A stretch of 64,000 bases of DNA from a virus: the IMG/VR virus record IMGVR_UViG_3300044991_001301; one strand, 5' to 3'. A program made the translations under genes and the position numbers. Positions 2,444-60,400 of the stretch are shown here, in pieces. The notes beneath the pieces were generated by a model. It was not told the DNA's origin. It made no database searches and worked only from the letters and a program-made list of their open reading frames with translations. Every line of letters starts with the position of its first letter. The first letter of the stretch is position 1.

Positions 2444-2806
2444 TTAATTATCTAACGGTTCGTCATCACCTAAGCCGTCAAGTGCCACGACATTTATACC
2501 TGCGTTACGCTTGATCTGGTCTAACTCATCATATGAATATTGTTCTTCATCTTCCGGATCAGGCTCATCATACACATTTTCTACACCTGTTGCTTTTTTC
2601 AACAATTCTAACTTCAATTGTAATGGAGGAATGAATATGTCATCCGGCTGTTGAGCAAGTCCGCTACCATCTACTGCACCCAATTTAGGTGCTAGCACTG
2701 GCGCTGCTGGTTGTATTTTGGCAGGCAATCTGCCGGGTTGACCGAGTGATGCTTGTTTAGCATCAATCATATCTGCCAAATTACGTAAAATCTCGCTTGC
2801 TTTCAT
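2444..2806 (-). CDS. Hypothetical protein, probable virion/head protein
   Basis: 120-aa ORF with an MKASEIL N-terminus resembling the leaders of neighbouring head proteins. Late-promoter-like ATAAATA at 2901-2907. Confidence 0.6.
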   Translation of the reverse strand: MKASEILRNLADMIDAKQASLGQPGRLPAKIQPAAPVLAPKLGAVDGSGLAQQPDDIFIPPLQLKLELLKKATGVENVYDEPDPEDEEQYSYDELDQIKRNAGINVVALDGLGDDEPLDN

Positions 2807-3665: not shown

Positions 3666-4043
3666 TTATTTTCTTTTATAACCTTTAAATGGTTTAACTA
3701 TACTTTGGGTATTTGTATTGGGCAATTCTTCGCTATCCATATCACCATTATTTAAATCTTTATACTCTAACCCGGCAGCTTTATATGCTAATTTTAACAT
3801 ATCTTGTTCTTCTTTAGTGTAGGGTTGTGCAGTATTGTGTTTACCTACCCAACTTTCAGCATTCATCTCTATTGGGTTTATTCCATCACTACAAGCTACA
3901 GCCATCATTAAACGATTTAAATCATATAGTCTATCATAACTGTCTATTTTCTTTGAAAAAATATTTAACCCACGGGTAGATTGTTGATGCCGTTTAGATA
4001 TTTGACCAACTTTAGATTCAGATATAAATTCACTTGCTCTCAT
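3666..4043 (-). CDS. Putative internal head protein with capsid-targeting-like leader
   Basis: N-terminus MRASEFISE resembles the T4 capsid targeting sequence MKTYQEFIAE. Paralog of 4040..4438. Confidence 0.55.
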   Translation of the reverse strand: MRASEFISESKVGQISKRHQQSTRGLNIFSKKIDSYDRLYDLNRLMMAVACSDGINPIEMNAESWVGKHNTAQPYTKEEQDMLKLAYKAAGLEYKDLNNGDMDSEELPNTNTQSIVKPFKGYKRK

Positions 4044-4438
4044 CTAGGATATCCTTTAAAGGCCTTAATCGGGCTATTTTTATCTACAGTTGTGCCTTCT
4101 TCACTAGCGCGGGTACTAATTAGTTTTTTATTATTGCTATCAAGACCTAATTCACGTAATGCATAATCAATGTCATCAACTAGTTCAGGGTCCATATGAT
4201 CGGTTACAACCATATTCTCACCCCACTCGGTAGAGGCGGCATATGGTGCAATCTTATCATCTTGATTGGCACGGGTTCTAGCACCTTTGGCGCCTGCCAT
4301 TGCTACACCAAATCGATATTGTTTATAAAAATCACTATTTGGCAATGCACCAATAGTATAAACCGCCGGCAAAGCGAGGGCAATGTCACTGGTTAATGGG
4401 GTAACTGTTGCTTCAGTAATAAATTCTTTTGCTCTCAT
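4040..4438 (-). CDS. Putative internal head protein with capsid-targeting-like leader
   Basis: N-terminus MRAKEFITE. C-terminus SPIKAFKGYPR matches SIVKPFKGYKRK of the neighbouring gene. Confidence 0.55.
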   Translation of the reverse strand: MRAKEFITEATVTPLTSDIALALPAVYTIGALPNSDFYKQYRFGVAMAGAKGARTRANQDDKIAPYAASTEWGENMVVTDHMDPELVDDIDYALRELGLDSNNKKLISTRASEEGTTVDKNSPIKAFKGYPR

Positions 4439-7143: not shown

Positions 7144-8223
7144 TTATTTATAAAAGTCCATTACTCTCTCAGCAATATATTCAACGTCTTGATCTGTTAA
7201 TTCAGGATACATTGGCAAGCTCAATACACCTCGACTTAACATTACGCTAGTACTTAATAAGTCTGGTTTAACTAATTTTTTAGCTATTGGTAGATCACCT
7301 AATACATATTCATAATGCACTTTGCTATCAATCCCATTAACTAGTAAATGTGTGTGTAGAGAGTTTCTATCCTCAAGATAGACTACAAATTTTTGATGGG
7401 CGTGAGAGTTCGACCCAGCTGACAAACATCTTAGGGGAAGGTCTTCGAAGGCAGCACACCAATAATTTGCTATGTCCCGTCTGCGCTGTTGCCATTGACC
7501 AATGTATTTGGTTCTGACAAGTATTTGGGCGCAGTCCTGTTCACTCATTTTTGAGTTTGATCCCGACGCGTGGAAGTATGGCTTACAGTTGTCTTTATAT
7601 GAAGCTGCGTGTAAGTACAGTCCTTGATCGTTTGTTACAATGGCGCCACCGTTACCTGACGATGGGAGATTTTTTGTAGGGTCAAAACTGATAGACATCC
7701 CAGCACCAACCTGCCCATTAGCAACTAACCAATGCTGTGCCCCATCAACGATTACTCCGTTATTGTGTGCTAGCATGGTGTCATCCCAAGGTTGCGCACC
7801 ATAAAGACCAACCAAGCATTGGTACGCATTAGCTATTGGTCCATTACGTGATAGTATGCCGTACTTGTCGGTATCTGCTAACTCAACATTCCACCCTGTT
7901 TTTAAAAAAGCATTTAGTGTGGCTGGGTAAGTTAGATTGGGTACACGAATCGTGGGTGTTCCATTAATAACCGGTATATGCGTTGACTTCTTATAGTCTG
8001 CGATAATCTCTAGTGCTTGTGTGCCACTATGAACCGTAACGGCATATTTTGTCTTAGTTCTTTCCCTTAGCCAAGCTTCAAACTCGAGGGTATAACGACC
8101 CCCGACTAGTTGACCGTCTTTGAGAGCATTATGCGTTGCGTCAAGCAATTCATCTTTAAGATTTTTGTATTGTTTTGCTAGCCCAAAATGGGGAATTTGA
8201 TAACCAACCATAATATTTTTCAA
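7144..8223 (-). CDS. DegT/DnrJ/EryC1/StrS family PLP-dependent sugar aminotransferase
   Basis: HSGTQAL, VDGAQH and SFDPTKNLPSSGNGGAIVT (PLP lysine), plus LSLPMYPEL. The true start may be the ATG at 8211. Confidence 0.9.
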   Translation of the reverse strand: MKNIMVGYQIPHFGLAKQYKNLKDELLDATHNALKDGQLVGGRYTLEFEAWLRERTKTKYAVTVHSGTQALEIIADYKKSTHIPVINGTPTIRVPNLTYPATLNAFLKTGWNVELADTDKYGILSRNGPIANAYQCLVGLYGAQPWDDTMLAHNNGVIVDGAQHWLVANGQVGAGMSISFDPTKNLPSSGNGGAIVTNDQGLYLHAASYKDNCKPYFHASGSNSKMSEQDCAQILVRTKYIGQWQQRRRDIANYWCAAFEDLPLRCLSAGSNSHAHQKFVVYLEDRNSLHTHLLVNGIDSKVHYEYVLGDLPIAKKLVKPDLLSTSVMLSRGVLSLPMYPELTDQDVEYIAERVMDFYK

Positions 8224-15261: not shown

Positions 15262-16140
15262 TTAGAACCGATGGGTGACACCTACTCCAAACTGAGTAAC
15301 ATCAGCTACTGTGCCAAAACGATTGACATTGCGATAAGCTACATTAATTTCAGTACGCTTGCTTAAAGCATAATCGGCGCCAGCAGAATATGCTTTAACA
15401 TTGCCATTTGTCCTACCATAACTAGCTTTCGCTGTAATGGCACCGAACGTGCGAGCTACCCCAACCAAGTCACCTTTACTCTTAACAACACCGGTGTTGT
15501 CACTATGAGTGTATGCTAATTGAGTTCCCATTACCTTTGTACTTAAGCCTATTACAGTGCTCTTTTCTTTACCGCTTTCAAAGCGTGCCAGTGCAGCATC
15601 AACATTAGCAACCGTTGCAGTCAATGCATAAGCCGAAGCATTAATGCCACCATCACGCGAACGCTCATATGCAATCCCTACATTTTTCATCGGGGTCAAT
15701 GTGATGAACGCAGCATTACCTAAACGTAGGTTGCGAAGATTATGAACATCTCCGGCTACAGAGCCATATAGCGTGCCAAATACATCATTAGATGTGATGG
15801 CCAAGAATTGGCTATGAACATTACGTCCAAGATCAATACTAACTAGCTTAGTTGTCAACCCTACGGTTGCCTGACGATCACCAACCTTAGTACCATTCCC
15901 ATCAATCGTGTTAGCACCTAGACTAGTTTCAATGACTGCCCTTGCGGTTGCGCCATTCCCTATTTTCTCACTTGCAGTCATAGCAAAATTACTAGTTGGC
16001 TCAGTAACTAAGCCGGTAACTCTGCGGGCACCTGTGGTAGAAGTGTCTACAATCTCGCTAACTTTACCCGACAGGGTTAGTTGGGCACTGGCCACGCCAG
16101 TTAACGCCATAAATAATGTTGCCATTACGATTTTTTTCAT
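15262..16140 (-). CDS. Gram-negative outer-membrane porin (Betaproteobacteria-like)
   Basis: Sec signal MKKIVMATLFMALTGVASA-Q, then RQATVGL, SIDLGR, GADYALSKRTE and a C-terminal beta-signal GVGVTHRF. Confidence 0.85.
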   Translation of the reverse strand: MKKIVMATLFMALTGVASAQLTLSGKVSEIVDTSTTGARRVTGLVTEPTSNFAMTASEKIGNGATARAVIETSLGANTIDGNGTKVGDRQATVGLTTKLVSIDLGRNVHSQFLAITSNDVFGTLYGSVAGDVHNLRNLRLGNAAFITLTPMKNVGIAYERSRDGGINASAYALTATVANVDAALARFESGKEKSTVIGLSTKVMGTQLAYTHSDNTGVVKSKGDLVGVARTFGAITAKASYGRTNGNVKAYSAGADYALSKRTEINVAYRNVNRFGTVADVTQFGVGVTHRF

Positions 16141-16263
16141 ATCTCATTCCTTTATTTAAAAATCCGAGACTCGGATTATACAAATATTTATGCTAGCGTA
16201 GGCAGACAAATAATTTATCTGTTTGTGTAAAGTATGATACTATTGGCTGTATTTACCCAAAGA

Positions 16264-16285
16264 AATAGGGACCGAAGTCCCTATT
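16264..16285 (-). terminator. Intrinsic terminator closing the tmRNA
   Basis: Minus strand AATAGGGAC-TTCG-GTCCCTATT followed by TCTTT (UUCG tetraloop). Confidence 0.8.
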
Positions 16286-16565
16286 GCTATTTTTGGTTAC
16301 AAGGCATAACTGCCTCGCTTTCAACCGTTTGAGGCTAAAAGGTATGTATTATCGTTTGCGGATAATGGTTTTATGCGATTTACGGTCGTCATCTACCGTG
16401 TAGATCCTTCAAATAATCCTTTCGCAATCGATACTGTTTCAGGCCCATTATAAAGTACACTGTATGTCGGATACTATTCCGCTCGTAACACTGAAGTGTC
16501 AATGTACTTTATGGTGGACCTGGCCGGCACTGCCCCGGCGTCTTGCAATTGTTTCTTATCTGGCG
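16286..16565 (-). ncRNA. ssrA: Circularly permuted (two-piece) tmRNA
   Basis: The acceptor piece ends GACGCCGG-GGCAGTG-CCGGC-CAGGTCC-A-CCA (CCA end at 16512). An intervening segment (16447-16511) is closed by the inverted repeat ATAAAGTACA/TGTACTTTAT. The coding piece starts GGGCCTG at 16446, giving a 7-bp acceptor stem with G3:U70. A pk1-like element precedes the resume codon GCA at 16359 and the tag ANDNTYLLASNG-stop (16359-16321). The upstream boundary is approximate. Confidence 0.9.
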
Positions 16566-16850
16566 TTAAACTACAATTCTGTTTTGTGGCATGCTCTTTT
16601 TAAGCCTTCCACTAATAAATCCTTTGGTAAAATATCTCTCTTGGTTTTCAATCAGTATATAATGTTATGTAATACCATTATTTACCCAGCATTTTGTAAC
16701 CACATGTCCTTTTTTGCCCTTAACCCAACCATTGGGCATAGCATCATGCATTGTACTACGTTTTACTTCTTTTGTCAATACGTTTGAAATCCAAATTATG
16801 CCGAACTGTGAATTTCGTTCACCTACCTGATGCTGAATCTTTGCAAAGGT
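16566..16850 (-). pseudogene. C-terminal remnant of a free-standing phage homing endonuclease
   Basis: Start-less frame TFAKIQHQVGERNSQFGIIWISN...PNGWVKGK...CWVNNGIT*HYILIENQERYFTKGFISGRL with an internal TAA at 16665-16667. The GxxNSQFG and WxNNG...GxxxGR modules are typical of phage homing endonuclease C-termini. Confidence 0.6.
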
Positions 16851-17561
16851 TTATTTACTATAATTTTTCACAGCACTGATTGCATGAGTAGTCGATGCTA
16901 ATTGATTTTTTGCTGCTTGATGTTTGGCAGGATCTAGATATGATGAGCCTGCTGTAGGATACCCCGCAGAACGAACATTCTTTAGTCTTTCGTCATGACT
17001 TGGATGAGTTTTACTACCTTGACTAAAAAATTTACCCGCTTCATGTATATCGCGCAGAGCCTCATTTACATTATACCCAGCAAGTATTGCTAGGCGTACA
17101 CCATACGTATCTGCTTTTAATTCTGCACCTTTAGGGTCTAGATGGTAGCTGCTAGTTCCATTAACAAAATGCCCTAATTCATGACCCAATGCAAATGCTA
17201 TAGCATCGTCAGATAAATCATAATATACAGTAACATCTAAATATATTAACTTTAGTTTAATATCAGCGGCTGCAACTTGATTTACCCAACCTACTTCTAA
17301 CTCAATATCTTTAGTTTTTTTATAAGTATTCGGATCGTTTCTGGCAATAGTTACTTGTAATTTTCCAAGAATTTGATTAGCCCGAAATTGTAACTTAGGT
17401 TTTTGTTTTTCATAAAATGTCATTTGATCTACTGTGCTTTCACCAGGATGAACATATTGTCCAGCGCGTGATTGACTGGTGGCGCCAAGAGCGGCGGCTG
17501 CCGCCCCTCCCACAAAACCGCGGCGAGTAATATCTTCATGAATTATTTCATTTATACGCAT
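16851..17561 (-). CDS. M48-family zinc metalloprotease with capsid-targeting-like leader and twin-arginine signal
   Basis: AFALGHELGH (HExxH), ELKADTYG and THPSHDERL. N-terminus MRINEIIHE-DITRRGFVGGAAAAALGA. Exact TATAAATA at 17566-17573. Confidence 0.85.
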   Translation of the reverse strand: MRINEIIHEDITRRGFVGGAAAAALGATSQSRAGQYVHPGESTVDQMTFYEKQKPKLQFRANQILGKLQVTIARNDPNTYKKTKDIELEVGWVNQVAAADIKLKLIYLDVTVYYDLSDDAIAFALGHELGHFVNGTSSYHLDPKGAELKADTYGVRLAILAGYNVNEALRDIHEAGKFFSQGSKTHPSHDERLKNVRSAGYPTAGSSYLDPAKHQAAKNQLASTTHAISAVKNYSK

Positions 17562-17565
17562 TCAG

Positions 17566-17573
17566 TATTTATA
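17566..17573 (-). promoter_or_regulatory. T4-type late promoter
   Basis: Exact TATAAATA 4 nt upstream of the M48 ATG. Related xTAAATA motifs precede many other genes (2901, 3620, 5430, 6154, 16185, 28940, 32069, 34024, 34049, 48384, 50628, 51411). Confidence 0.7.
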
Positions 17574-17596
17574 CTAATAGTAATTAAAACAATTCT

Positions 17597-17664
17597 TGGT
17601 GCCCACAGTGTGGGAATCGAACCCCCGTCCAACATGCCTTCTATCCAAAGGAATTACAACAATC
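17597..17664 (-). pseudogene. Orphan tmRNA/tRNA-like 3' end (T-arm + ACCA)
   Basis: Minus strand ...GGCATGTTGGACGGGGGTTCGATTCCCACACTGTGGGCACCA has a canonical GGTTCGATTCC T-arm and an ACCA end, but no matching 5' half or anticodon arm is visible. Confidence 0.45.
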
Positions 17665-17667
17665 TTT

Positions 17668-20600
17668 TTATTTATTCCTAAAATACAATGCGTCGAATTT
17701 CGCTCTCAGCCACGGCCAATCATAGCTTAGCTTTAATTTCTCAAAATCACCATTAACTTCTTTGTAATACTCCACCGCGTGTTGAGCACCATCAATGCTA
17801 TATTGAGCAAAATCACCCATTCCAACTGTCAGCCAGAATTCAAGTCGTTCATTGCTGATATCAGAGGCGTCGTGGACTAACTTTAACGCTTCTCTAAACG
17901 CAGTTCTCCACGTGCTATATGCATCGGTATTGTATACTGCTGTGCCACTCGTAATTTTAACAACCTCGTGCTCGTCATCCATTGTAAAGTCAAGACCTGT
18001 GCCAGGATTAGCAAGTGTCAATTTTTTGTTATATGCAATCATAGCTTGGTGTCCATATACTAACCCATTCACGGGGTTTTTAGCATGAAATACATAATGC
18101 TTGGGTATTTGTAATCTGTCGGGTTGCCAATTCCAATCAAACTTTACCGCAACCTTTAACTTTGCGAAAACTGTAAACATCCAAGCCGTATTACTTGCTT
18201 CAGCAGCAGCGTGATATGCTGCTACTCGACCATTAACGCCGTCAACTCGGGTAATACGATTTGGCAACCCGTGCGTCACCTTAAGCAAATGCTCGTAGTT
18301 CTGTTCCGCACCCAATTCACCGTTACTTAAGAAAACAATGTCCATTGGGGAGGATTTGGTGAGTTTGCTATTAGTGATAATGTATGGATAATCGTATAAC
18401 TCTCTTTTAACATACTTGGCTGCTTCTTTAGGAACAATAATGCGAGTTCCACCCTCACTAGTAATCACGATGTTCTTTGTTTCGCTACTCCACAAACTCA
18501 TTGGTTCAGTGTCAATGACTGTAATGGCAGTGTTGTCATCAGTAGTGAATACTGCATAGGGAAAGTTAAACGGGGTGTTGATACTATCCACGTGAGTGTC
18601 ACTGGTAGTAATAATGATTGGAGCTGGCAACCGTTTGCTACGTTGACTTTGATTGTAATTAATCTTAACAAAATCTTCTAATACTGTCATATCATCACTC
18701 AACTCTCGTAATTTGTTAACATCAATTAAAAATGTATCTCCAAACTTTTGCTTGTCACTGGGGAATACGTGAAGTTGTTCTTTGGTAAAGGGATCGCATA
18801 TGTAAGTAAAGTCAAACCCTGTATAATCACAAATAGTGCTAACTACCCAAACATAATGTTCTGGTTTAACAGGCAAATTGGTCAACATAGTTCTAAATGT
18901 GTTGAGATAGCTGGTATCGTATTTTACAATCAAATTGCCGTAGCTGACATCAGCAAGTTCTTGATTGCCGTGGTCAATATACACTGTATCATACAATATG
19001 TTAGTAGCGGTTGCTCTGCGTTCTTTAACAAAATTCAAGTTAGACAAATGTTCTATGATTTTGATGTACTTGGTATCATTGGCAAATGTTTCCCGATTTA
19101 CCATAAAGGTTGTTCCCCAATGATTCCATTGAGTGCCGAACACGTGAACCATTTTCATTTGCCACGGGCTAGGGTAAAAGTCAAATTCAAAAGTGTTGTA
19201 ATCTAATTCACTATTAATCACCCAAAACAAAGTGGTTTCTGATTTGATAATGCACCTGTTGATAGTGTCAACCCAATTGTTCAAGTAGCGTGTTTTTTGT
19301 AGTTGTGGGTAGCGGAGTTTTAACTCATCGTACCGGTGTGCGCTTTCTGCATTTCTTTTATCTATAAAGAACATACTTAGATTGCTGTCTACCTTCACAC
19401 TAGCACCTTCAACATAATTATATGCTTGGTGCCCTAATATATACATTGGGCCGTTGACATAGTAAGTTTGTGTATTGATACTGTTTTCATTGCCAAACAC
19501 ATTGATGTGTCTGAAGTTTTCTTCTGTGGGTTTCCAACTAAAATCAAATTTAGAATAATTCAAGTCAGGATTGATAGCCCAGAACACCTCATCAGAATGT
19601 TCGGCAATCAACTCTTCCAATGTTGTTTTAATTTTATAACGGTTGACTACTGCTTTCTTTGTTTCGTTAGTTCTAGCCATCAACACAACTTCATTGGCAT
19701 CAGGGACAGAATAGCGTGGCCCATTGTCAGCCCATTGATATATTTGTGGCGGACTGTGTGGGTTAGGTCTCCATGTAAAGTCAAATGTTTCTAAGTCATC
19801 ATTGTTATTGATAGCCCAAAACTGAACCTGTGCTTTAGGGGTAGCAACAGGACTATCCATATACTTAAACTCTGTGGCACCCTCACAATGATACTCAATG
19901 GATGGCTCGATAGTCATATCATTCCACTTGTTACCAAACACATAGATATAGGCGGGGCTATTGGGGTCTGGACGCCAACTATAATCAAACCATTCAATTG
20001 GGATCAATCGTTTCCAATTGTGATCTGTAGCAGTTGACTTTACTACACCAACGATATCTGTTATGTATTTTCTATCACTCGCTCCGGGTGTGTGATACTC
20101 TACAGTTGGTTCGCGTACGCCGTCGTGCCATTGATTACCAAACACATAGATATAGGGACTAGAGTGGGGATTGGGTCTCCAACTATAATCAAAGTTGTCT
20201 ACTGGTATCAGCGTTTTCCAGTGTTTGTGCGTATTAGCAACGGTAGCGACAACATCTGTGACAAAGCTTTTTTCTCTAGCACCTTCTACAATGTACTCCA
20301 CCGTAGGTTCTGTCATAGCATCGTGCCATTGATTACCAAACACATAGATATAAGCGGGGCTATTGGGGTCTGGTCGCCAACTAAAGTCAAAAGACTCAAC
20401 AGGAATTAATATCTTCCAATTTTGCGGTACAGGTAGTGTTTTAGCCACCCTGTCTAGCATATATTTTCGTTCGGTGGCAGAAGGGCAATGGTATTCAATC
20501 GTGGGTTCTTTCTCCGCACCATTAGACTGATTGCCCCATACATAGATGTATGCGGGTTCACGTGGGTCTGGTCTCCAACTAAAGTCAAATGATGACTTGT

Positions 20601-23600
20601 CAACTGGTATTAATAGTTGGTACCTATCCCATTGGGGGACTACGTCAGCCTCACCCACGTATTTGCGCTCAGTCGCCCCATCACAATGAAATTCAAGTGT
20701 CGATTGTAATTCGCCGGCGACATATTTATTGCCCCATACATAGATGTATGCTGGTTCACGTGGGTCTGGTCTCCAACTAAAGTCAAAGTTTTCAACTGCT
20801 TGTAAAATCTTCCAACTTGCGTGTATGGGTGTCACGCTAACATCGTTACCCATGTATTTAAACTCTGTGGCTCCATCACAGTAATATTCCACTGTGGGTT
20901 TCAATTCAGCACTGATATGTTTGTTACCCCATACATAGATATATGCGGGTTCTCTGGGATCCGGTCTCCAACTAAAGTCAAAGTTTTCAACTGCTTGTAC
21001 AATCTTCCATTTGTCAAATTGGGGAACTACTTCCACAGTGTCGTCCATGTATTTGCGCTCAACAGCTCCTTCGCAATGATATTCAAGTGTAGGTATTAGC
21101 TCCCCGGATACCCACTTGTTTCCCCAGACATAGATATATGCTGGTTCACGTGGGTCGGGTCGCCAAGTAAGGTCAAACTTAGTTTTGTCTATAGGCTGAA
21201 TTTCATTCCAACGATTAGTTTCTGGCAAGACGGCAACCTCATCACCCATATATTTTCGTTCTGTGGCATCGTCGCAATGATATTCAAGGGTAGGCTTCAA
21301 GTCGGCGGCGATCCACTTGTTACCCCAGACATAGATATATGAGGGTTCACGAGGATCAGGTCTCCAACTAAAGTCAAAGTTTTCAACTGCTTGTACAATC
21401 TTCCATTTGTCAAATTGTGGCAAGACTTCAACATTGTTGTCCATGTACTTGCGCTCAACAGCTCCTTCGCAATGATATTCCACAGTGGGTTTCAACTCAG
21501 CACTAATGTGTTTATTACCCCATACATAGATATATGCGGGTTCTCTGGGATCAGGACGCCATGTCAAGTCAAACTTAGTTTTATCAACTGGCTGAATTTC
21601 ATTCCAACGATTAGTTTCTGGCAAGACAGCAACCTCATCACCCATATATTTTCGTTCGGTTGCCCCTTCACAGTGATATTCCACTGTGGGTTTCAACTCA
21701 GCACTAATGTGTTTATTACCCCATACATAGATATATGCGGGTTCTCTGGGATCAGGACGCCATGTCAAGTCAAACTTAGTTTTGTCTACTGATTGTATTT
21801 CTTCCCATTTGGCTTGCTCAGGTAGCACCTCAACATCATCTCCCATATATTTAAGTTCAGTCGCACCATCGCAATGATATTCTATTGTTGCTTTTAACTC
21901 AGCACTGATATGTTTATTTCCCCAGACATAAATGTATAGTGGTTCACGTGGGTCGGGTCGCCAAGTAAGGTCAAACTTAGTTTTGTCTATAGGCTGTATT
22001 TCTTTCCATCGATTAAGTTCAGGTAGCACCTCAACGTCATCTCCCATATATTTGCGTTCGGTAGCTCCCTCACAGTGATATTCTATAGTGGGTTTCAACT
22101 CAGCACTGATATGTTTGTTACCCCAGACATAGATATATGCGGGTTCTCTGGGATCAGGTCGCCAAGTAAGGTCAAACTTAGTTTTGTCTATGGCCTGGAC
22201 TTCTCTCCAGCGATTATATTCTGGCAATACCATAACCCCTTCGCCCATATATTTTCGCGCAATGGCTCCTTCACAGTGATATTCAAGAGTTGGCTTCAAG
22301 TCGCCGGCTATCCACTTGTTGCCCCATACATAGATATAAGCTGGTTCGCGTGGATCTGGTCGCCAAGTAAGGTCAAACTTAGTCTTGTCTATGGGTTGAA
22401 TTTCTTCCCATCTATCTTGATCAGGCAATACCACAACATCATTACCCATATATTTAAGTTCAGTCGCCCCTTCACAGTGATATTCTATAGTGGGTTTCAA
22501 CTCAGCACTGATGTGCTTGTTGCCCCATACATAGATATATGCGGGTTCTCTGGGATCAGGACGCCATGTCAAGTCAAACTTAGTTTTGTCTATAGATTGT
22601 ATTTCTTTCCAGTGATTGAGTTCAGGTAGCACCTCAACATCATTACCCATATATTTAAGTTCAGTCGCACCATCGCAATGATATTCTATTGTTGCTTTTA
22701 ACTCAGCACTAATGTGTTTATTACCCCATACATAGATATATGCGGGTTCTCTGGGATCAGGACGCCATGTCAAATCAAAGGTATGTCTATCGATAGATTG
22801 TATTTCTTTCCAGTGATTGAGTTCAGGTAGCACCTCAACATCATTACCCATATATTTAAGTTCAGTCGCCCCTTCACAGTGATATTCTATTGTTGCTTTT
22901 AACTCAGCACTGATATGTTTGTTACCCCAGACATAAATGTATAGTGGTTCACGTGGGTCGGGTCGCCATGTCAAATCAAAGGTATGTCTATCGATAGATT
23001 GAACCTCATTCCAGCGATTGAGTTCAGGTAGCACCTCAACATCATTACCCATATATTTAAGTTCAGTCGCCCCTTCACAGTGATATTCTATCGTTGACTT
23101 TAACTCAGCACTGATATGTTTGTTGCCCCACACATAGATATAGGGAGGTTCATGTAAGTTGGGATCAGGTCTCCAACTAAAATCAAATTTACTTTTATCA
23201 ACTGACTGTACTTCTGTCCATCTATCCCATTCTGGTTCTAACGCAACAATGTCCATGTATTTGTATTCTGTTGCTCCCGGAACTGTATATTCTAATGTTG
23301 GTTTAACTTCAGCCGGATCATATTTGTTTCCCCATACATAGATATATGGTGGTTCACGTGGGTCGGGTCGCCAAGTAAGGTCAAACTTAGTCTTGTCTAC
23401 CGGTTGAACCTCATTCCAGCGATTAAGTTCAGGTAGCACATCAACATTGCCCATATATTTTCGTTCGGTAGCTCCCTCACAGTGATATTCAAGGGTCGGC
23501 TTCAAGTCGCCGGCTATCCACTTGTTGCCCCATACATAGATATATGCTGGTTCACGTGGGTCGGGTCGCCAACTAAAATCAAATGCGTTTTTATTCACCA

Positions 23601-24351
23601 CCTCGATCCCTACCCATTTATCCCATTGGGGCAGTACTTCAACTAACTCAGGCATATGCTTGATTTCAGTGGCATTGGGAGTGTGATACTCTAGTGTAGA
23701 TTGTAGCGTGCCATCAATAAACTTGTTACCCCATACATATATGTAGGGCGGGTCGAGGGGGCTAGGTCTCCAAGTCATATCAAACTTGTCTTTGTCTACT
23801 GTGTGTTCCGTCTCTACCCAATTAGCTGTGTTTGACAGTAATTCCACCGTATCAGCCATATACTTGATAGCTGTAGCACCAGGGGTGTGATATTCTACAC
23901 AGGCTTTTAGGTGCACCGGGAAGAACTTACAACCCCAGGTATAGATATATGGAGGATCGGATGGATCTGGGTGCCAACTAAAATCAAATTTAGTCTCGTC
24001 AACTAAATCTAACAACACCCAACAATCATTCTTTTGATTTTTCCGTTTTATTGGATCAACGTCATTTCGATAGATAATAATTTCGCTAGGTTCAGATGGG
24101 CATAACCAAGTGCCGCTGTCTTTTTGGTGGAGACTGGGCCACACATTATTATGTTCTTCTGCCCAAACATCTTCATCGGGTAAGAATTCAAAATCAAAAT
24201 CCCAATCAAAGTTACGATAATCACAATGTTCGTTGATTATCCAAAAATGCGCAGTGGTACATTGACCTCTAGCGTCATCTATTGACGCAGCAAATTTTTC
24301 TCTTGGGTGAACATTGGGTTTTTTGTTACAGTAAAATACATCGAGGAGCAT
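17668..24351 (-). CDS. Giant tandem-repeat protein with degenerate glycosyltransferase-like domains
   Basis: 2227 aa with about 22 copies of FD(L/F)(T/S)WRPDPREPAYIYVWGNK...EYHCEGATE.KYM. The C-terminal domain (DIVFLSNGE...RVDGVNG..AAYHAAA...WRTAFREALKL) aligns by eye with 45170..46120. Confidence 0.75.
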   Translation of the reverse strand: MLLDVFYCNKKPNVHPREKFAASIDDARGQCTTAHFWIINEHCDYRNFDWDFDFEFLPDEDVWAEEHNNVWPSLHQKDSGTWLCPSEPSEIIIYRNDVDPIKRKNQKNDCWVLLDLVDETKFDFSWHPDPSDPPYIYTWGCKFFPVHLKACVEYHTPGATAIKYMADTVELLSNTANWVETEHTVDKDKFDMTWRPSPLDPPYIYVWGNKFIDGTLQSTLEYHTPNATEIKHMPELVEVLPQWDKWVGIEVVNKNAFDFSWRPDPREPAYIYVWGNKWIAGDLKPTLEYHCEGATERKYMGNVDVLPELNRWNEVQPVDKTKFDLTWRPDPREPPYIYVWGNKYDPAEVKPTLEYTVPGATEYKYMDIVALEPEWDRWTEVQSVDKSKFDFSWRPDPNLHEPPYIYVWGNKHISAELKSTIEYHCEGATELKYMGNDVEVLPELNRWNEVQSIDRHTFDLTWRPDPREPLYIYVWGNKHISAELKATIEYHCEGATELKYMGNDVEVLPELNHWKEIQSIDRHTFDLTWRPDPREPAYIYVWGNKHISAELKATIEYHCDGATELKYMGNDVEVLPELNHWKEIQSIDKTKFDLTWRPDPREPAYIYVWGNKHISAELKPTIEYHCEGATELKYMGNDVVVLPDQDRWEEIQPIDKTKFDLTWRPDPREPAYIYVWGNKWIAGDLKPTLEYHCEGAIARKYMGEGVMVLPEYNRWREVQAIDKTKFDLTWRPDPREPAYIYVWGNKHISAELKPTIEYHCEGATERKYMGDDVEVLPELNRWKEIQPIDKTKFDLTWRPDPREPLYIYVWGNKHISAELKATIEYHCDGATELKYMGDDVEVLPEQAKWEEIQSVDKTKFDLTWRPDPREPAYIYVWGNKHISAELKPTVEYHCEGATERKYMGDEVAVLPETNRWNEIQPVDKTKFDLTWRPDPREPAYIYVWGNKHISAELKPTVEYHCEGAVERKYMDNNVEVLPQFDKWKIVQAVENFDFSWRPDPREPSYIYVWGNKWIAADLKPTLEYHCDDATERKYMGDEVAVLPETNRWNEIQPIDKTKFDLTWRPDPREPAYIYVWGNKWVSGELIPTLEYHCEGAVERKYMDDTVEVVPQFDKWKIVQAVENFDFSWRPDPREPAYIYVWGNKHISAELKPTVEYYCDGATEFKYMGNDVSVTPIHASWKILQAVENFDFSWRPDPREPAYIYVWGNKYVAGELQSTLEFHCDGATERKYVGEADVVPQWDRYQLLIPVDKSSFDFSWRPDPREPAYIYVWGNQSNGAEKEPTIEYHCPSATERKYMLDRVAKTLPVPQNWKILIPVESFDFSWRPDPNSPAYIYVFGNQWHDAMTEPTVEYIVEGAREKSFVTDVVATVANTHKHWKTLIPVDNFDYSWRPNPHSSPYIYVFGNQWHDGVREPTVEYHTPGASDRKYITDIVGVVKSTATDHNWKRLIPIEWFDYSWRPDPNSPAYIYVFGNKWNDMTIEPSIEYHCEGATEFKYMDSPVATPKAQVQFWAINNNDDLETFDFTWRPNPHSPPQIYQWADNGPRYSVPDANEVVLMARTNETKKAVVNRYKIKTTLEELIAEHSDEVFWAINPDLNYSKFDFSWKPTEENFRHINVFGNENSINTQTYYVNGPMYILGHQAYNYVEGASVKVDSNLSMFFIDKRNAESAHRYDELKLRYPQLQKTRYLNNWVDTINRCIIKSETTLFWVINSELDYNTFEFDFYPSPWQMKMVHVFGTQWNHWGTTFMVNRETFANDTKYIKIIEHLSNLNFVKERRATATNILYDTVYIDHGNQELADVSYGNLIVKYDTSYLNTFRTMLTNLPVKPEHYVWVVSTICDYTGFDFTYICDPFTKEQLHVFPSDKQKFGDTFLIDVNKLRELSDDMTVLEDFVKINYNQSQRSKRLPAPIIITTSDTHVDSINTPFNFPYAVFTTDDNTAITVIDTEPMSLWSSETKNIVITSEGGTRIIVPKEAAKYVKRELYDYPYIITNSKLTKSSPMDIVFLSNGELGAEQNYEHLLKVTHGLPNRITRVDGVNGRVAAYHAAAEASNTAWMFTVFAKLKVAVKFDWNWQPDRLQIPKHYVFHAKNPVNGLVYGHQAMIAYNKKLTLANPGTGLDFTMDDEHEVVKITSGTAVYNTDAYSTWRTAFREALKLVHDASDISNERLEFWLTVGMGDFAQYSIDGAQHAVEYYKEVNGDFEKLKLSYDWPWLRAKFDALYFRNK
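19730..23990 (-). repeat. Coding tandem repeat, about 201-bp (67-aa) unit, about 22 copies
   Basis: ATTACCCATATATTTAAGTTCAGTCGC recurs at about 22441, 22642, 22843 and 23044 (201-bp period). Central copies are near-identical in DNA and outer copies are diverged. Confidence 0.95.
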
Positions 24352-51424: not shown

Positions 51425-54400
51425 TTACGATTGATCCTGATTTAAGAAAATTGCAGAAGCAGTTGTGCTAATTTGTAATGGATCGCCATCTACTAGATTG
51501 AAAGTATAAGAATTCCAAGTTTGATTGTATTGTACATCTGTCATACGGTTAGATGATAAGATGCTAAATATTTCGCTGTATAAAGGAACATAAACTTGTT
51601 CACCGGTACCATTTGCCCCGCGTTGTAATCCAGACAGTGTATTATTCACTGTGTCCACTGACGAGAACTTTATTTGCTCTCCGTTAACGTAAATTAAATT
51701 ACCTTCAATTATTGTAATAGTCAACTGATCACCCGGGGCTATCCAAGATCCTGAAGTAATTTGCAAGATTGGAGACAGTTCCTCTATCACAATTTTATAA
51801 TTACTACTGTTTATTTCCGCAGAAGTAGTGTTGTTATACACCGATACATTAGAAATAATCCTCTTATCTGCTGTTAAACCAATACTCATTAGATTTGCCA
51901 CTACCGCAGGAGCAGTTGCTATCTGAGTAACAGTATCTGTCAAACGAGTAATGTCATCAACATAAATTACAGTATCAGTGTTAAATAGTGGCTGAACTAA
52001 CCAAGTTCTTGTCAATGTGTTAGCCCTGTACACCGCTGCAGAATTCTGCTGATTTACGTTTAACAAGTACACTTCCTCATTAGGAGTCGCCGATGGCATC
52101 ATACTGGTTATTATTACTTCATCAGCCGCATCAACAACTGTTAGTATGCCAATTTCATTCGCCGGGTTCAACCGTAAACTTGATGATGGGATTCTGTATC
52201 CGTTTACAGTAACCCACAATCTATTCACATTAGTTTGTTCCCATTGTGTTACATACATTGTTCCAGAATCTGATGTTAATATAAACGGTGTGCCGTTCCT
52301 CTCTTCAGATATTACAAATTCTGTCACACTAGTTATTTCAATAATATAGTATGTGGTGCCAACAACAATACCGCCCAATGTAATATCACCTATTATTGAG
52401 CCTGGCGCAGTAAATATGACGGGCGTATCTACTACTAATAATGCAGTTGAGGGGACTACAATTTTGTTATGCAGAGAGGCAGTGTCACTGGCTGTGGTGT
52501 CTATAATTTCAAAGGAATTACTTAGCCAAACATATCCTCCACTAGTATATGATGACACCGAAGTTATTGGGTAATTTACCGCTGAGTAAGCCGGATCATA
52601 TGGTTGTTCATACAAGTCAAATTGTACGTCATTAATCACATGAACATAATACGTATTGTTGTTTAGTTGAGTAGACCCAACCACGCCGTCTATTCTTACT
52701 ATGTCGTTTTCAGATAAGTTATTAACCATTCCAGTTGTTACACGCACAGCTGGCTGACCGCCAACATACGCGACCAATAGTCCTGTACCTCCAACTAATA
52801 CTACTGCACTTCCGCCGAGCGTTGTACTAATCTGAAATTCGGTGCTTGTAAACCCGGATAGTACAAAATAAACAGTACCGGCTGAGTTAATGCTCGCGTC
52901 AAAACTAGTTCCCTTGAACTCTACCGTTTGATCGGCAACAAACCCACTAGTAGAATTACAAGTGATTAAATTAGTCCCTGCAGTAGTAGCTGTTATGTTA
53001 GTGATTGATATCGGTGGAGTAATAACATTACTAATAGAAGTTATGTCAGATACCGTGACACCAGTAATCCCATATTGCGTATTCAGATACTGTCTATCAG
53101 TTAAATTGTATGATGTAACCGCAATAACGTCATTTAGTAATGGAGCCGTAGTAAATACTATCTCATTTAATGAATTATCAATAATATACTCAGTATCAGA
53201 CTGTCGTAATCCGTTAACTTCAACGATAGCATTTGTCGGGTTATCATCAGCGACATAATTTGCCAATACAAACGTATCGGTAGTTCCGTCACCGGTAAAC
53301 AGTTCTGTTTCCGGGATAGTGTATCCGTATTGTGTAGGGGTAGTTTCCCCGAACAAAGTATAGGTTAAGTAATCTACTGTGTTATTGTATGACGCAGCTA
53401 GCATAATTTTCGCTGAAACCCCATTCTCGGCTATACCAAATGAATAGTCATTTGATATGAATTCTGCTCCACCGGTTGCAGTAGTAAGCACTAACACATT
53501 ACCTGGATTAGCAGGATCCTCTAATGTAAATTCATTAGCATCTACGATACTATAAATGACGTATGTTGTTTGCGGTATAATAATCCCACCAAACATAGTG
53601 TCACTAAAGACTACTACAGTACCTACTACCAACCCACCTGTTGTGTTACAGGTTACTGCATTATTTGTTGCTTTAGTTCTGGTGACTGTTCCAGTTAACC
53701 CGTGCAATAATTTCACACCATTGTGATACATTAATGGTTCAGCCCACGGCGCGCCCGATCCAACAGCAATAACTACATACATCGAACCCACAGCAGTTGT
53801 AACCACAAAAGTAGGACCTGCAGTACCTGAAGTGAAATTATATGAACTTGATACAGTAATACTACTAGTTACTGTGCTAATTGTTTTAACATAATAGGTA
53901 GTATCTTCTAATATGTTGCCAAACGTAGTACCTTGGAATGTTATCGGGTCATTAAGTACAAAATCCTTTACTCCCACGCAAGTAATAGTATTCTCTATCG
54001 CAGTAGTTTTTATTGCTTCAACTGCTATGGGTGCCGTTCCAGGTCTAATAACGCCACTGCCGGAGAATATAGTAGCAGAATAGTTACAATTTACATATAT
54101 TTCATTCCACCCTGTGGTTAGATTAACACGAATTGGATCTGTCTTTGTATTAGCCTTAACCAATTGGTTTCCGTTTCCTGTTTCATACACATCAATTCGT
54201 AATGTATCAGTGATTGGAGTGAAAGATAACGGGATAGCTAAAGTTATCACATTAGTAATCCAATCGATACTGTAATCAGGTTCGTATATCGAGGTGCTCG
54301 TACCAGTAATGCCGTCTATGACAAACACTGCAAGTTGCGCCGGGGTCTGTGCTACTAAATCAAAACTGTAATCAGTCTGAGTGGCTGAGGTTGGTTGTAT

Positions 54401-57400
54401 TTCGATTGACAGCACGTTATAACCCACGTGCTGATATACAGTTTCTGGCCAATTTGTGCCAGGTCTAGTAGCCACTGTCAACGTTATGTTATCGCTTATG
54501 ATGCCGGCTACTAGTTCCTCAGGACCATATCCAGCCTGAAACGGATCACCCTGTACATCATACACAGTGGGTACTACAACAAATATCGAAGAGCTAGTCC
54601 AAGTTACTCCATTATCAGAGCTTAGAATAATAGTGTTGTTATCACCTACCACAGTCCACGTAGCCGCAGTCGCGTTATATACCAAACTATTTAAGTTTTC
54701 TAGCGTACCAGAGACTTGCGTTACCCATACATAACCGTCCACCGATGTTCTAATTAACCCGTCATTACCGACGGCCATAAATATAGAATTATCAAATAAC
54801 ACATCATTTAGATCACTTGTACTTGGATACAAATACATATAAGTTGTTGTGCTTGGATTAACATCATTTAACGTGATTGGCAGTCCACCCAATGAAGTAC
54901 TAATCTGAAGTTGTGATTGGGTAATAATGTTCACCACATAATAGGTGACAGAAGACGATATTACGTTAAAAGAGTTAGAGAATCTAATCTCATCATTTAC
55001 CAAGAATCCATCAGTATTAGAAACGTTGATATTATTAGTGTCAGAATTTACACTAACAACTGCAACTTCATTCACGCCTAGCCAAACAATGCCAGTTTGA
55101 CTAGTGTAAATAACACCGTTCTCTCCAACAGCAACCATAATATTACCGTTGTCCGTTATGCTATAAAACCCATTAAAACTATAAGCCGGGCTTTGTGACC
55201 ATGAGATACCGTCTAAGCTAGTTAGCACCAGATTTACATCTATAGTTTCAGTTAGTCCGGTTGAATAATCAGGAATCTGCCCTTTACCTATGGCTACAAA
55301 TCCATAATATGAGTTTGTACTCACTCCCTTAACGCCGTACAAAGTGTTAACCAATCCATTTGTGAACGTAAATCTATTTGTCCAGATAGATGCGTCAACA
55401 CTTGATGCAATGCTGCTGCCGGCCACAATGTACACTCCGTCACGATACCCAACAGAATTCAATGCCATACCTGATGAGCTTAAGGTTACTGACTCGTTCG
55501 GTAACAAAGCTGTGGGTATATAGCGGCCTCCAGCAGTCCAAGTGATCGCGTTAGTACTACGTAAGATAGGAGTAGCAATGTTAGTAGTCGTGATAAGGTA
55601 TATTCCATTTACATATATAATACCAGTCAGACTTAACACTGAGTTGGCTAGTTTATCAATAACCCAATTTTCACCGTCACTGCCCGACACAACACCCGAA
55701 TACGTTGATGTTTCAGCAGGACTAAAGTAACTTGTTCCGGTCCAGATTATCGCTTTCATATCAACTTCAGTGGGATAGAATGGTTGATCCTGTAAGATAG
55801 TATCTATTTGGAACTGTTCGTCAGGGGCAAACGCATTGCCTTTATACGTGCTGTTTGGATATTGTATCCCGCTAACTAATTGAGTTAAGTCGTAGCCGGG
55901 CATATTAGCAGTCGGTTGATAGTAACCAATAACTCTATCTAAAGCATTTAATCTGCGATCACCTGAATCTAACAACTGCCACTTACCAAATATAAATTCA
56001 GAATCGTGGTTGCTAATTAGACAACTGTAGACTCTATTGTTATACCGAACAATACTCTGATTAAAATAGAACGGTTCCGGTAAGACTGCATATGAGCCAT
56101 ACTTAGCCATTGTGAAATCTTGCAATAAAGTAGTAGACAACACTTCAACAGAACCAACATCGTTGGGAACAGTACCAACAGTTAGCGGTGATACAGTGAG
56201 CACGTAATATATTTGTCCTAATATTAATCCTCCGGCTACTGATCCAGTAAACACCACTGCATCATTAACTGCAAATTCACTTACGCTGTTAACTGTAATA
56301 CTATTTGATCCACTAGTAGTTCCGGTTACCGTAGTTGAGATTATGCCTATATAGGGGAAATCAATACCTGATACCGGTACAGTCATTAACGGATTTGAGA
56401 ATACAGCTAATTCAGTAGATGAAATTACTCGCAAATAATAGCTGTCAGAAATACCAGGCACTGTGCCTGATCTGATAACACTTGTTATTTCACCGCTAGT
56501 CCCGATTGCCACAACAGTTAGGGTAAGATCATTATTCGGAGTTGTTCCTCCCACGCTACTGCCTGATATTAAGATGGTATTATCAATAGCATATCCTGTA
56601 CCCGAATCAGTGATAATAGCCTGATAGCCACCCATACGATAACTAACACTGAATAGTGGTGGTGTTAGCGGATACTGGACTAAATTAACTACCGCAGTCT
56701 CGGTAGTTAATACTTCTACACTTCCACCAAGACTTGTTGATACTTGTATGTACGGTGATCCGGTACCTGTCATTACTCCGTTGTCTACCGTCAGGGTTGT
56801 TATTGCCCCTCCCGGTGTATTAGTCAGCACAAACTGTGTTCCATTAACAATATGTCTAACATAATATTCTACATTGAGATCGATAGTGCCTAGCGGTACA
56901 CCGGAGAATATAATCGGCATACCTATGTATAATGAATCAGTCGTGTCACAAGTTACCGCACTTAGAGAGCAAGTAAGTGTTGAGCTTATAACATTTTGTG
57001 AGTTTGTTACAAAATAAGAGCCTACCCCGCCAGGTGTGCCGGCTATTTGTGAGACCACCTTAGTGCCAGGAATGACGGTGCCGCCGGCCAAAGAACAGCC
57101 CGGAACTACCGCGCCCGATGTGACACCGGTAACTGTTAGTAAGCTTACTGGCGCGCCTGATAGTATGTCTCCGGTAATTACCGCTGACGCAATAGATGGT
57201 GAAGTAGAAGTAACGTCTACCTCAATGTATCCAGAATCTACTACATAGTATGTTGTTCCTGTTACTAGGCCACCAATATTTGTTTCAACCTGTAATGGAA
57301 AATTATCATATATGTTTGTTAATCCACCACTGTAGCTACTGATCGCAACCCTATCTACGGTATCAATAGTTGATTGTATCTCTCGCGTAACTAATGAACT

Positions 57401-60400
57401 AACCGGTCCTGCCAAGTCAGGATATTGCTCTGAAGTGTTGTATAAAGTAAATTGTTGACCGTTAATCTGACCAGGGCTAACCGGGATAGACACATTAATA
57501 GTCATACTTCCTGTTGCGGTAGACAACTGAACAACATTTCGTTGACTGGTTAATACTGCGTTAGTAGGAAGCAAGGGGTCTACGCTAGCAGCCTGATCTG
57601 CTAATGGAAATACTGATCCGTTAACTACAGCAGATAATTGTATTGAATTATTGTTAGGAATGCTAGCAACATAATATGTTGTGCCTGAAACAATGTTGCC
57701 AAACACGGTAACATCCACTCCAAGTATTACCATTGAGTTAAAAATTACAGGATCATTTATTTTTAGAGATTGGGTATCAGTTGATATTGTAACATAGTCT
57801 GTGCTAGCAGCAGTAGCGGACACATCTAACATTGTTGGATCTTTGGACTCAGCGATAGTGAACGTTTGCTCATCGAGTACAGTTGTAACATAATATATTT
57901 CGTTTTCAACTATCCCACCAAATACGGTTCCTGTAAAGAATACCGGTAAGTTAACATAGAAGCCATTAGTGCCACCTGTCCCCACCAAGGTAACCGGAAT
58001 AGTTATAGTGTTAGTACTTGTCGTAGTCGCAGTAACCTCTAAGATGCCTGGATAATTAATCGTAAGTACTGCAAGATTAGTTACTTCGCCAACTGAACAT
58101 TCTAAACCAGCAGCACTAACTGTACCACCTGTCAGAGCAAAGATAGGTCCATCTACTGATTGTGAAATAGTGAAGTCTGTAGCATCTACTATACTATTAA
58201 CATAATACACTGTATCGTTTACCAATCCACCTAACACAGCACCTTTGAATACAATTGGCATATTAACATAGAAACCAATAGTAGAACCCGACGCATTTGG
58301 ATTATTAGAGCCATCATCAAGAGGTGTTAACCGAATAGCGTGATTTAACGCAATTATTTCAGCAACTTGGCGTATCAGTGAAGAATACGAAACTGTTTGC
58401 TCATTCCGAACATCGACAATTTCAAAGCCTACCCCTTGGGCACTGGACAGAATAGTGCTAATAGCCGGTTGTGTACTTTGTAATTGTATAGAAGAACTGG
58501 CTACTGATTGTGGGTCATTGTACGCACCTGCGAATCCGGCAAAGTATGAACCATAATATAGGTCCATCTCCCAATCAGTTACTTGTGAATTGTATGTAGT
58601 TCTGTCAAATCGTAACGCAATATTATTTTCTCTGATAGGGGCCGCACTGGATATGCAAGATGCTTTAGCTCCTACACTTAGTGCGTGAGTAGTTCCTGTA
58701 CCAGTCGAGAATAATACAATTCTATTTTGATCCTGGAGAGCATCTCTGTAATTGGAATACAACGCTACGGTAACAGTAGGTACTGTCTCTAATACATTAA
58801 CATAATACCATTGATTATTTGTCAATCCACCAATCGCAGTGCTACCAATTCCAACAGTATACTTGATCAAGTCTCCGGTTTGTAGCAACGGGGCGTACAA
58901 TTGAATGGTATTATAGCTTGGACTGACTGCTGTACTAGCAAACTCACTTGATATAGCAGAATCAATTATAATCTGAGGTAATACTGCATATCCTTGACCC
59001 GGGTCAATTACGGTTATACTTAATACGGAATCTAATGTCATTACTGCTTCTAATACCGCAGGCTGTGATGGTGCTGGGTAAATTGTCGTATCAATATAAG
59101 CTATTACACGCGGTGGCTCAGAATAGCCTCTTCCGCCATCTAATAACAACACTGCTGGTAAATCAATGTATATTAACTCTCCTGGAATGTGATTGGTGAT
59201 AGGTGTATTGCTAACCCCACGAGTTAGGCCGCTGACCACATTGACTGATCTGTCAACCGTTGCATAAGCGATAAGTTCATTTCCAATTTTAAATACCCCA
59301 TTAATAGGTATTCCCTGAGCGTTTGATATAGCGAATGCTGTTGTATTCAACGCAATATAGGTGTCCAATATAGCTATCTGAACATTGTCTTGTCCAGTAA
59401 TGCTTACCCCATAATTATTATACCAAGAAATATAACTTGGATCAGACCAAATCGGACTACTAGGTAAAAACTGTGATACTAAGCTAGGGTTAGAGTATAC
59501 CAACTCAGGGGTGATGAATTGTTGAACTGATGAATCAAAAATTGCAGGCAAATCAAAATCAGTGATATCTCCGGCATAGACATCAGCACCGGTGTATTTA
59601 AATAAGAACTCTTTAATTACCACGTGGTAAGGTTTTACTTCATTTAAATATCCTGCCAAAAAGTCTTGGTTATCTGATTGATATATACTGATAGGACGCA
59701 ATTCACGAATGGTGTGTGACACATCAATGAATGAGGTTTTATTCAACCAAGGCAAATAGTTTTGTGAATCAATAGTCTCGCTTTGGATATACTCAAACAT
59801 CAATATTAGACTCTTATTTCTAAAGACTAGTAAATCGTTTATATAAATTTGTTCGTTCAATCCTCGTAAGATATTTCTAGTCTCTTCACTCGGATATGCA
59901 TCATATGGATTGGTATCATAGAAGTTATCTCCAAATCCTATCCGTGCAGTGGCATAATCCCACAAATCAGATTTAAATTTAATAGTACCGTTCGTTAATC
60001 CAATGCGAGTCCAAGTCCCATCAGTATTGTAAATATAAGTCTCTGCATTACCAGTACTGTTTGCAGCGACGGTAACAATAGTATTAACAGCTACTGATAG
60101 CGTGAGTAGATTGGCATAGAGTGGCACTTGCAGTGCAGACTTAGTGTTATCATTGTAACCAATTGCCCACCAATTTGCATATTCCCAATAATCAGCAGTG
60201 ACAAAGAATGGAGTACCGGTTGATGGGTTTATTGGACCCTCAGTAAATAAGAAAGAATATTGTCTTGTTTCAGTAATTGGAAACTGTGCTAAAATAGTGT
60301 TAGCATATGTTAGATAATTTTTAAGCGCAAGAAATCTATTGATAAAGAAGCTTTGTCTTGGTCGAGCTAGCACTCCATTTTGAACTGCTTTGGGTAGATA

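Follow-up and report, generated by a model that had tools for sequence, protein, structure and literature searches.

A phage M48 protease with a candidate capsid-targeting leader in front of a twin-arginine signal: a possible variation on the T4 internal-protein system

Injected phage proteins act either in the cytoplasm, as do IPI* and Alt of T4, or in the envelope during ejection, as in T7 and P22. We know of no virion protein that, once delivered, is passed on by an export pathway of the host and, to our knowledge, no T4 internal protein has a twin-arginine (Tat) signal; full-text literature searches turned up no phage protein, virion-borne or injected, described as bearing such a signal. 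The Tat system operates post-translationally and takes finished proteins. The capsid-targeting sequence of T4 is MKTYQEFIAE (PMC8442874). The first ten residues of IPIII are enough for head targeting, processing depends on residues 8 and 10, and the gp21 protease cuts after the motif L/I-x-E (PMC9026906). In T7, gp16, and in P22, gp7, gp16 and gp20 (the P22 ejection proteins are covered in PMC8402733), are virion-borne and eventually act in the envelope of the cell just infected, as is proposed here for a phage protease. They differ from this protease in going directly into the envelope, whereas the latter would use host export after delivery to the cytoplasm.

The window, that is, the whole 64,000-nt stretch of viral DNA analysed here, contains on its minus strand an ORF of 236 aa for an M48 protease (16851..17561). 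The three-part layout put forward in a preliminary description of the gene was borne out, residues 1-33 being exactly as quoted. Residues 1-9 (17535..17561) form the leader M-R-I-N-E-I-I-H-E, a putative propeptide resembling a capsid-targeting sequence, with I-x-E at its end. A predicted twin-arginine signal peptide follows (residues 10-33; 17463..17534), comprising the segment T-R-R-G-F-V, with the codons for R13 and R14 at 17520..17525, an Ala/Gly h-region and S-R-A before G34. The remainder (residues 34-236; 16854..17462) is the mature M48-type minimal gluzincin domain (Pfam M48), with the zinc-binding and catalytic motif HELGH (residues 127-131; 17169..17183) and ELKAD (residues 147-151; 17109..17123), whose E147 is the likely third zinc ligand. 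The end coordinate of the preliminary description, 17573, needs correction: it took in a promoter-like 8-mer, and the gene ends at 17561. The interpretation given in that description is partly supported, and comparisons with relatives back it more strongly than did the evidence first offered for it. On balance, we give an even chance to the proposal that this gene encodes an active M48 protease with two serial address labels, a leader of the capsid-targeting type that would be cut by a gp21-type protease and a Tat signal that would direct export after injection.

Among the PHROG matches within the window are proteins of the tail and the baseplate wedge, a virion structural protein, a CobS-like ATPase and a carbamoyltransferase. 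By the CobS-like ATPase, the closest cultured phage is the Pseudomonas jumbo phage PA5oct (48% identity), followed by Phosso and Atu_ph07. These matches together with the relatives of the ATPase point to an uncultured jumbo relative of T4 as the source. The locus, the M48 protein and two other leader proteins had no match in 50,697 GenBank phage records (megablast and tblastn). Two very long reading frames also lie on the minus strand: an ORF of 2227 aa (17668..24351) in which a unit of about 65 aa, with the motif W-R-P-D-P-R-E-P...Y-I-Y-V-W-G-N-K, is repeated in tandem about 25 times, and a giant ORF, longer than 4169 aa (51425..63934), occupying the final fifth of the window.

A set of 1.8 billion representatives, searched exhaustively without a profile, yielded only 69 homologs of the M48 protein. 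Among these 69, the majority of phage M48 homologs start with M[RK]xxE[FI][IL]xE, whether or not a Tat signal is there. A leader of the type M[RK]AxEF[IL]xE heads dozens of unrelated ORFs in the phage clade as well, and in 30 IMG/VR loci, retrieved using the M48 family alignment, such ORFs cluster around the M48 gene, with up to nine in one locus. A back-translated search found the strict leader pattern at the head of at least 120 IMG/VR stretches; 108 leader ORFs in 21 sequence clusters were recovered among the matches listed. The frequency of the leader is far over chance. On the minus strand of the window itself, an unrelated 132-aa ORF (4040..4438) with the consensus leader M-R-A-K-E-F-I-T-E is a member of the largest leader-protein cluster among the matches listed (41 members); in tandem with it lies a 125-aa ORF (3666..4043) with the consensus leader M-R-A-S-E-F-I-S-E, and a 120-aa ORF (2444..2806) starts with the looser version M-K-A-S-E-I-L. 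All 32 strict leaders have Glu at residue 9, and all but one have I, L or V at residue 7. The leader of the M48 protein closes with I-H-E (residues 7-9), which corresponds to the gp21 motif L/I-x-E. PA5oct gave no match to the strict pattern.

Like the gp21-processed capsid-targeting sequences of T4 IPI, IPII, IPIII and Alt, the clade leader is short and N-terminal, ends in [LI]xE and has the core E-F-I-x-E, identical to that in the T4 sequence. As with the T4 internal proteins, it is common to many unrelated small proteins encoded in variable gene arrays. The T4 leader has 10 residues and begins M-K-T-Y-Q, whereas that of the clade has 9 and begins M-R-A-x; furthermore, the cargo described here bears a second address, the predicted Tat signal, which is not known from any T4 internal protein. 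By these comparisons, the leader appears to behave as a shared targeting and cleavage propeptide, in keeping with the capsid-targeting role suggested for it in the preliminary description.

The first 27 nt of the leader genes are conserved too (ATG AGA GCA ... GAA TTT ATT ... GAA), and the genes are tightly packed and devoid of Shine-Dalgarno sites. Because of this nucleotide conservation and the missing Shine-Dalgarno sites, a translational or recombinational role of the leader is possible. The same features favor an alternative in which the protease is a late protein of the ordinary sort that Tat exports from the producing cell, for example to aid lysis or strip receptors, its leader serving not for packaging but as a conserved n-region or as a translation or recombination cassette common to many genes. 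Tat n-regions of ten residues or more are normal, which also agrees with this alternative. Nonetheless, the leader heads many proteins that have no export signal, and we regard a plain late export protein as an unlikely, if serious, contender.

As in T4, related genomes of the clade carry a protease of the gp21 family. Peptidase_S77 (gp21) was found in one roughly complete related genome (340 kb) and in four of five further large leader-bearing contigs; a gp21-type protease is present in five of the seven related contigs that are at least 50% complete, and PA5oct encodes one also; one gp21 homolog of the clade is L158 9399..10046. Head genes were absent from the 64,000-nt window, and a gp21 homolog in the source phage itself is assumed. 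The capsid protein of the 340-kb genome has four [LI]xE sites, none of them beyond residue 42, and the scaffold protein of that genome has 15, a layout that a T4-like specificity predicts. Again as in the T4 system, the clade leader resembles the maturation site of the capsid protein: leader proteins of about 65 aa align, leader included, over the presumed maturation junction of the related capsid protein, with 11 of 21 positions identical and the two Glu residues superposed. Such an alignment argues against the late-protein alternative. In T4 gp23, residue 65 is the known cleavage position. The gp23 sequence (NC_000866) has L-T-E at this residue, and the aligner puts it eight alignment columns upstream of the L-K-E of the related capsid protein, so that the two are not superposed. 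The family of ~65-aa leader proteins is widespread (for example L050 2514..2714, minus strand, and L027 11981..12178, plus strand). Past the leader, its members mimic the part of the major capsid protein's N-terminal arm that comes right after the presumed cleavage site; judging from this resemblance, these proteins may be capsid-associated decoys or assembly factors.

[LI]xE was rarer than expected in leader-protein bodies (observed/expected 0.73, CI 0.52-0.96, 33 clusters) as compared to the other ORFs of the same loci (1.18, CI 1.11-1.26, 319 clusters; cluster-level bootstrap in both cases). The control motifs [LI]xD, [VM]xE, Ex[LI] and [LI]xQ showed no depletion in leader proteins, although a further control, [FY]xE, was low as well (0.73 in leader proteins versus 1.00). 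The depletion of [LI]xE lends indirect support to packaging in the head and N-terminal processing, and is a further point against the notion of an ordinary late protein. Counting against the processing reading, the mature M48 domain of the window protein contains one I-H-E, at residues 172-174.

Eight long proteins of the representative set have an internal Tat-M48 module. In uninterrupted IMG/VR ORFs of 508, 1477, 1509 and 1516 aa, the twin arginines occur at about aa 296, 510, 610 and 616, respectively, each time with L-x-E before them; the internal Tat segments of the 508- and 1516-aa ORFs score 20.8-22 bits with the Pfam TAT_signal model. In all of these long ORFs, [LI]xE sites flank the Tat-M48 module and none lies within it, and the C-terminal flanking site, H-L-A-E, is at the position where stand-alone M48 proteins end. 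A Tat signal buried inside a protein can work only once proteolysis has placed it at the N-terminus, so that this arrangement provides the strongest argument for the two-stage reading. For the same reason it speaks against a late protein simply exported from the producing cell: Tat signals placed 300-600 residues into uninterrupted ORFs need proteolysis, and [LI]xE is kept just before the twin arginines even in unrelated upstream contexts.

In relatives of about 1500 aa (L020 1337..5887, L023 8474..12907 and L028 8114..12643), the modules are separated by clusters of [LI]xE sites and include nucleotidyltransferase, SprT-like, Tat-M48 and amidoligase domains, so that one polypeptide holds several effector domains. 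These proteins look like polyvalent proteins (Iyer, Burroughs, Anand, de Souza, Aravind 2017, PMC5512222) that would be cut by the prohead protease. Here too, the M48 relatives occur as modules within multi-enzyme proteins of 1500 aa, which are probably delivered along with the DNA and cleaved into units. They depart from the published description in that the cut sites of the clade fit a prohead protease and not self-processing; the text of PMC5512222 contains neither "signal peptide" nor "periplasm". The window protein, by contrast, stands alone as a single domain and lacks the polyvalent feature.

Another interpretation has the protease undergo packaging and processing but act inside the head or the cytoplasm, either as a processing peptidase for polyvalent and leader proteins or as an effector on cytoplasmic host proteins, the RR segment being a linker or a membrane-association segment. 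Metallopeptidase domains of polyvalent proteins have been proposed to be processors or effectors (PMC5512222), and the M48 module of the relatives shares its polyproteins with nucleotidyltransferase, SprT-like and amidoligase domains; there is also a weak local similarity to the Lit protease. Yet the flanking sites match gp21 specificity rather than self-cleavage, and the RR segment has the attributes of a genuine export signal (see below). We consider a site of action in the head or cytoplasm rather improbable.

The window protein shares with bacterial Tat substrates (TIGR01409/PF10518) the motif S/T-R-R-x-F-[LV], a weakly hydrophobic h-region of Ala and Gly, a c-region bearing a basic residue and a small-x-A cleavage site. 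It differs from them in that the signal sits behind an acidic leader that is conserved and contains a protease site, in that the signal of its relatives lies hundreds of residues inside a polyprotein, and in that the presumed phage substrate arrives by injection and not from host ribosomes. With TIGR01409 (cut-off 16.7), the protein scores 14.5 bits with the leader and 18.4 bits once the leader is removed; with Pfam TAT_signal PF10518 (cut-off 22.7), it scores 14.4-14.8 bits, and homologs reach up to 22.7 bits, equal to the cut-off. The overall layout of the signal is common to 42 non-redundant relatives, in 39 of which [LIVFM]xE ends 2-4 residues ahead of the twin arginines. R13 and R14 are invariant among the aligned members picked for bearing a Tat signal. 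The Tat signal is absent from ~30% of phage homologs, which weakens the preliminary interpretation. The joint conservation of the twin arginines, Ala/Gly h-region, basic c-region and small-x-A site, along with the homologs that attain Tat cut-offs, is difficult to reconcile with an RR segment acting as a mere linker.

In about 14 representative homologs, the leader is joined straight to the mature N-terminus, the Tat signal being cleanly missing. The existence of these Tat-less homologs indicates that the enzyme is not obligatorily periplasmic, and agrees with a role in the head or cytoplasm. That they share the same mature N-terminus would also suit a scenario in which the packaged protein is released directly into the periplasm at ejection, in the manner of T7 and P22, the Tat signal being a relic or of use in the producing cell only; wall hydrolases are known among podovirus ejection proteins. 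This scenario seems to us highly improbable. The RR motif and the signal-peptidase site are clearly conserved, and T4-type internal proteins go to the cytoplasm (PMC9026906).

The combination of leader and Tat signal is found on other cargoes too: a GH19 hydrolase encoded immediately downstream of the M48 gene in one locus (L005) and a LysM-SLT transglycosylase in another (L039). GH19 and LysM-SLT enzymes act on the cell wall. As exported wall enzymes they could be secreted endolysins, a point for the late-protein alternative. Conversely, the restriction of the Tat signals to envelope-acting cargoes argues against a cytoplasmic function. All 17 leader ORFs flagged as having RR before a hydrophobic stretch look like bearers of cleavable Tat signals, and a Sec-type signal was seen in none of the 23 flagged leader ORFs that have no RR. 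This Tat-only pattern fits the requirement for a post-translational pathway. In one M48 homolog (P0039, 290 aa), G-G replaces R-R after an L-D-E site and the h-region is more hydrophobic; its Tat signal may have turned into a Sec-type signal or membrane anchor.

The preliminary description held that cleavage after E9 exposes the Tat signal. For a leader of nine residues this is overstated; the masking argument holds for the polyprotein relatives only. Because the short leader hardly masks the signal, export of the precursor from the producing cell may compete with packaging.

The protease domain itself looks like an intact minimal gluzincin, as predicted from both sequence and structural model. 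The protein matches Pfam PF01435 Peptidase_M48 with an E-value of 1.5e-8 (35.1 bits versus a cut-off of 20.3) and has HELGH (127-131), ELKAD (147-151) and THP (185-187) all in place. In the alignment of 22 sequences, H127, E128, H131, E147, D151, P187 and R192 are invariant, HExxH and the downstream Glu zinc ligand thus being kept throughout. An AF2 model built on the family alignment has an overall pLDDT of 75.7 and a pTM of 0.72; residues 41-200 reach pLDDT 83-98 save for one ten-residue block at 66, and residues 1-31, the leader and most of the Tat signal, are disordered. Foldseek matches were all weak (E no better than 4e-3, TM no higher than 0.36 on the query), the best being M48 or minigluzincin structures; they comprised 3c37 (a soluble M48-like peptidase), selecase, other minigluzincins, ZMPSTE24 and BepA. 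ESM Atlas neighbours were M48 clusters throughout.

With BepA/YfgC, LoiP/YggG, 3c37, selecase and the minigluzincins, the phage protein shares HExxH and the Glu in E-x-x-A-D, along with the weak fold matches, and an extracytoplasmic location is predicted for it as for BepA and LoiP. Distant bacterial M48 homologs bear Sec or lipoprotein signals, which suggests that the family acts outside the cytoplasm; that bacterial relatives are exported is one more argument against an enzyme confined to the head or cytoplasm. Unlike BepA and LoiP, the phage protein has no TPR domain, lipobox or membrane helices, and its spacing from HExxH to Glu (16 residues) is much shorter than in exported M48 peptidases. 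The phage enzyme is not orthologous to any named enzyme. BepA was ruled out as an ortholog by the missing TPR domain and by an NF052400 score of 18.9 bits against a cut-off of 570, seen in a homolog only; LoiP was ruled out by an NCBIfam score far under cut-off, likewise seen in a homolog only.

Among possible functions, the preliminary description had listed BepA-like handling of porins. This idea found no support: Pfam detects no TPR domain, and among more than 100 related loci there is none in which the porin is linked to the M48 gene. The porin, an outer-membrane protein with a Sec signal encoded by the phage, lies nearby in the window (15262..16140, minus strand; Pfam Porin_4 E 1.6e-19), with a weak PorB-like match and ATAAATA 45 nt upstream. 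No homolog of it was found in any of the >100 related loci, which rules out the porin and the M48 protease as a functional pair. The 710-bp gap between the two genes holds a permuted two-piece tmRNA (16261..16616, minus strand) of betaproteobacterial type (Rfam RF01850, 93.3 bits versus a gathering score of 84, E 1.7e-28) that was missed by ARAGORN. A beta-type tmRNA borne by the phage is a clue to a betaproteobacterial host; judged by this tmRNA and the Porin_4 gene, freshwater Betaproteobacteria are the probable hosts. On the other side of the M48 gene, between it and the 2227-aa ORF, the end of which it overlaps, is a T-arm-like tRNA/tmRNA element with a CCA end (17596..17696, minus strand; Rfam tmRNA 15.6-24.7 bits, sub-threshold) that may be a relic or mimic. 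A tRNA beside the M48 gene was rejected, ARAGORN finding none and Rfam giving the weak T-arm-like match only.

The M48 gene is preceded on its strand by an exact copy of TATAAATA (17566..17573), which ends 4 nt upstream of the ATG and which is the T4 late-promoter consensus. The exact late promoter claimed in the preliminary description is present as an 8-mer, although its occurrence is not above chance (five copies on the strand versus about five expected from shuffles) and its geometry is odd. Because TATAAATA ends 4 nt before the ATG, there is no space for a 5' leader or ribosome site. A second copy (7145..7152, minus strand) likewise ends 4 nt before an ATG start, at 7140, and these two start-proximal sites are hints of leaderless late mRNAs or of a start-proximal element. 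On account of its count, which equals the shuffle expectation, and its distance from the ATG, the 8-mer was not taken to prove that the gene is expressed late. The shorter ATAAATA has 17 copies on the coding strand versus 5 on the other, about nine of these copies lying within 50 nt upstream of starts; this strand bias and proximity to starts make late-type promoters plausible in general.

We envision the following sequence of events. Residues 1-9 would act as a T4-type capsid-targeting sequence, causing the protein to enter the prohead core, where a gp21-type prohead protease would cut after the I-x-E ending at E9. The processed protein, starting at D10, would exit the head with the DNA and reach the cytoplasm of the next host. 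With the Tat signal now N-terminal, the protein would be exported by the host Tat system, and signal peptidase would cut after S-R-A. Finally, and more speculatively, the periplasmic protease could cleave envelope proteins in an early takeover of the envelope, beside the injected wall hydrolases of related phages. That such two-stage addressing is clade-wide, with head loading by leaders of the capsid-targeting type, release at [LI]xE sites that uncovers cryptic Tat signals, and re-export by the host Tat system, is a proposal we make more tentatively, putting it slightly short of an even chance.

The two-address protease would be a variation on the internal-protein system of T4, in which the second, Tat address is new. 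If this is true, the phage would place folded enzymes in the periplasm within moments of infection: virion-delivered periplasmic effectors (M48, GH19, SLT) acting before phage gene expression, with superinfection exclusion, receptor removal and wall remodelling as possible uses. The nine-residue head tag and the Tat signal would constitute a compact, portable tag pair, and [LI]xE depletion together with site-flanked modules would offer a sequence-only predictor of head-packaged proteins in uncultured T4-like phages. Two-stage addressing would, in addition, account for the arrival of polyvalent-protein modules in different compartments.
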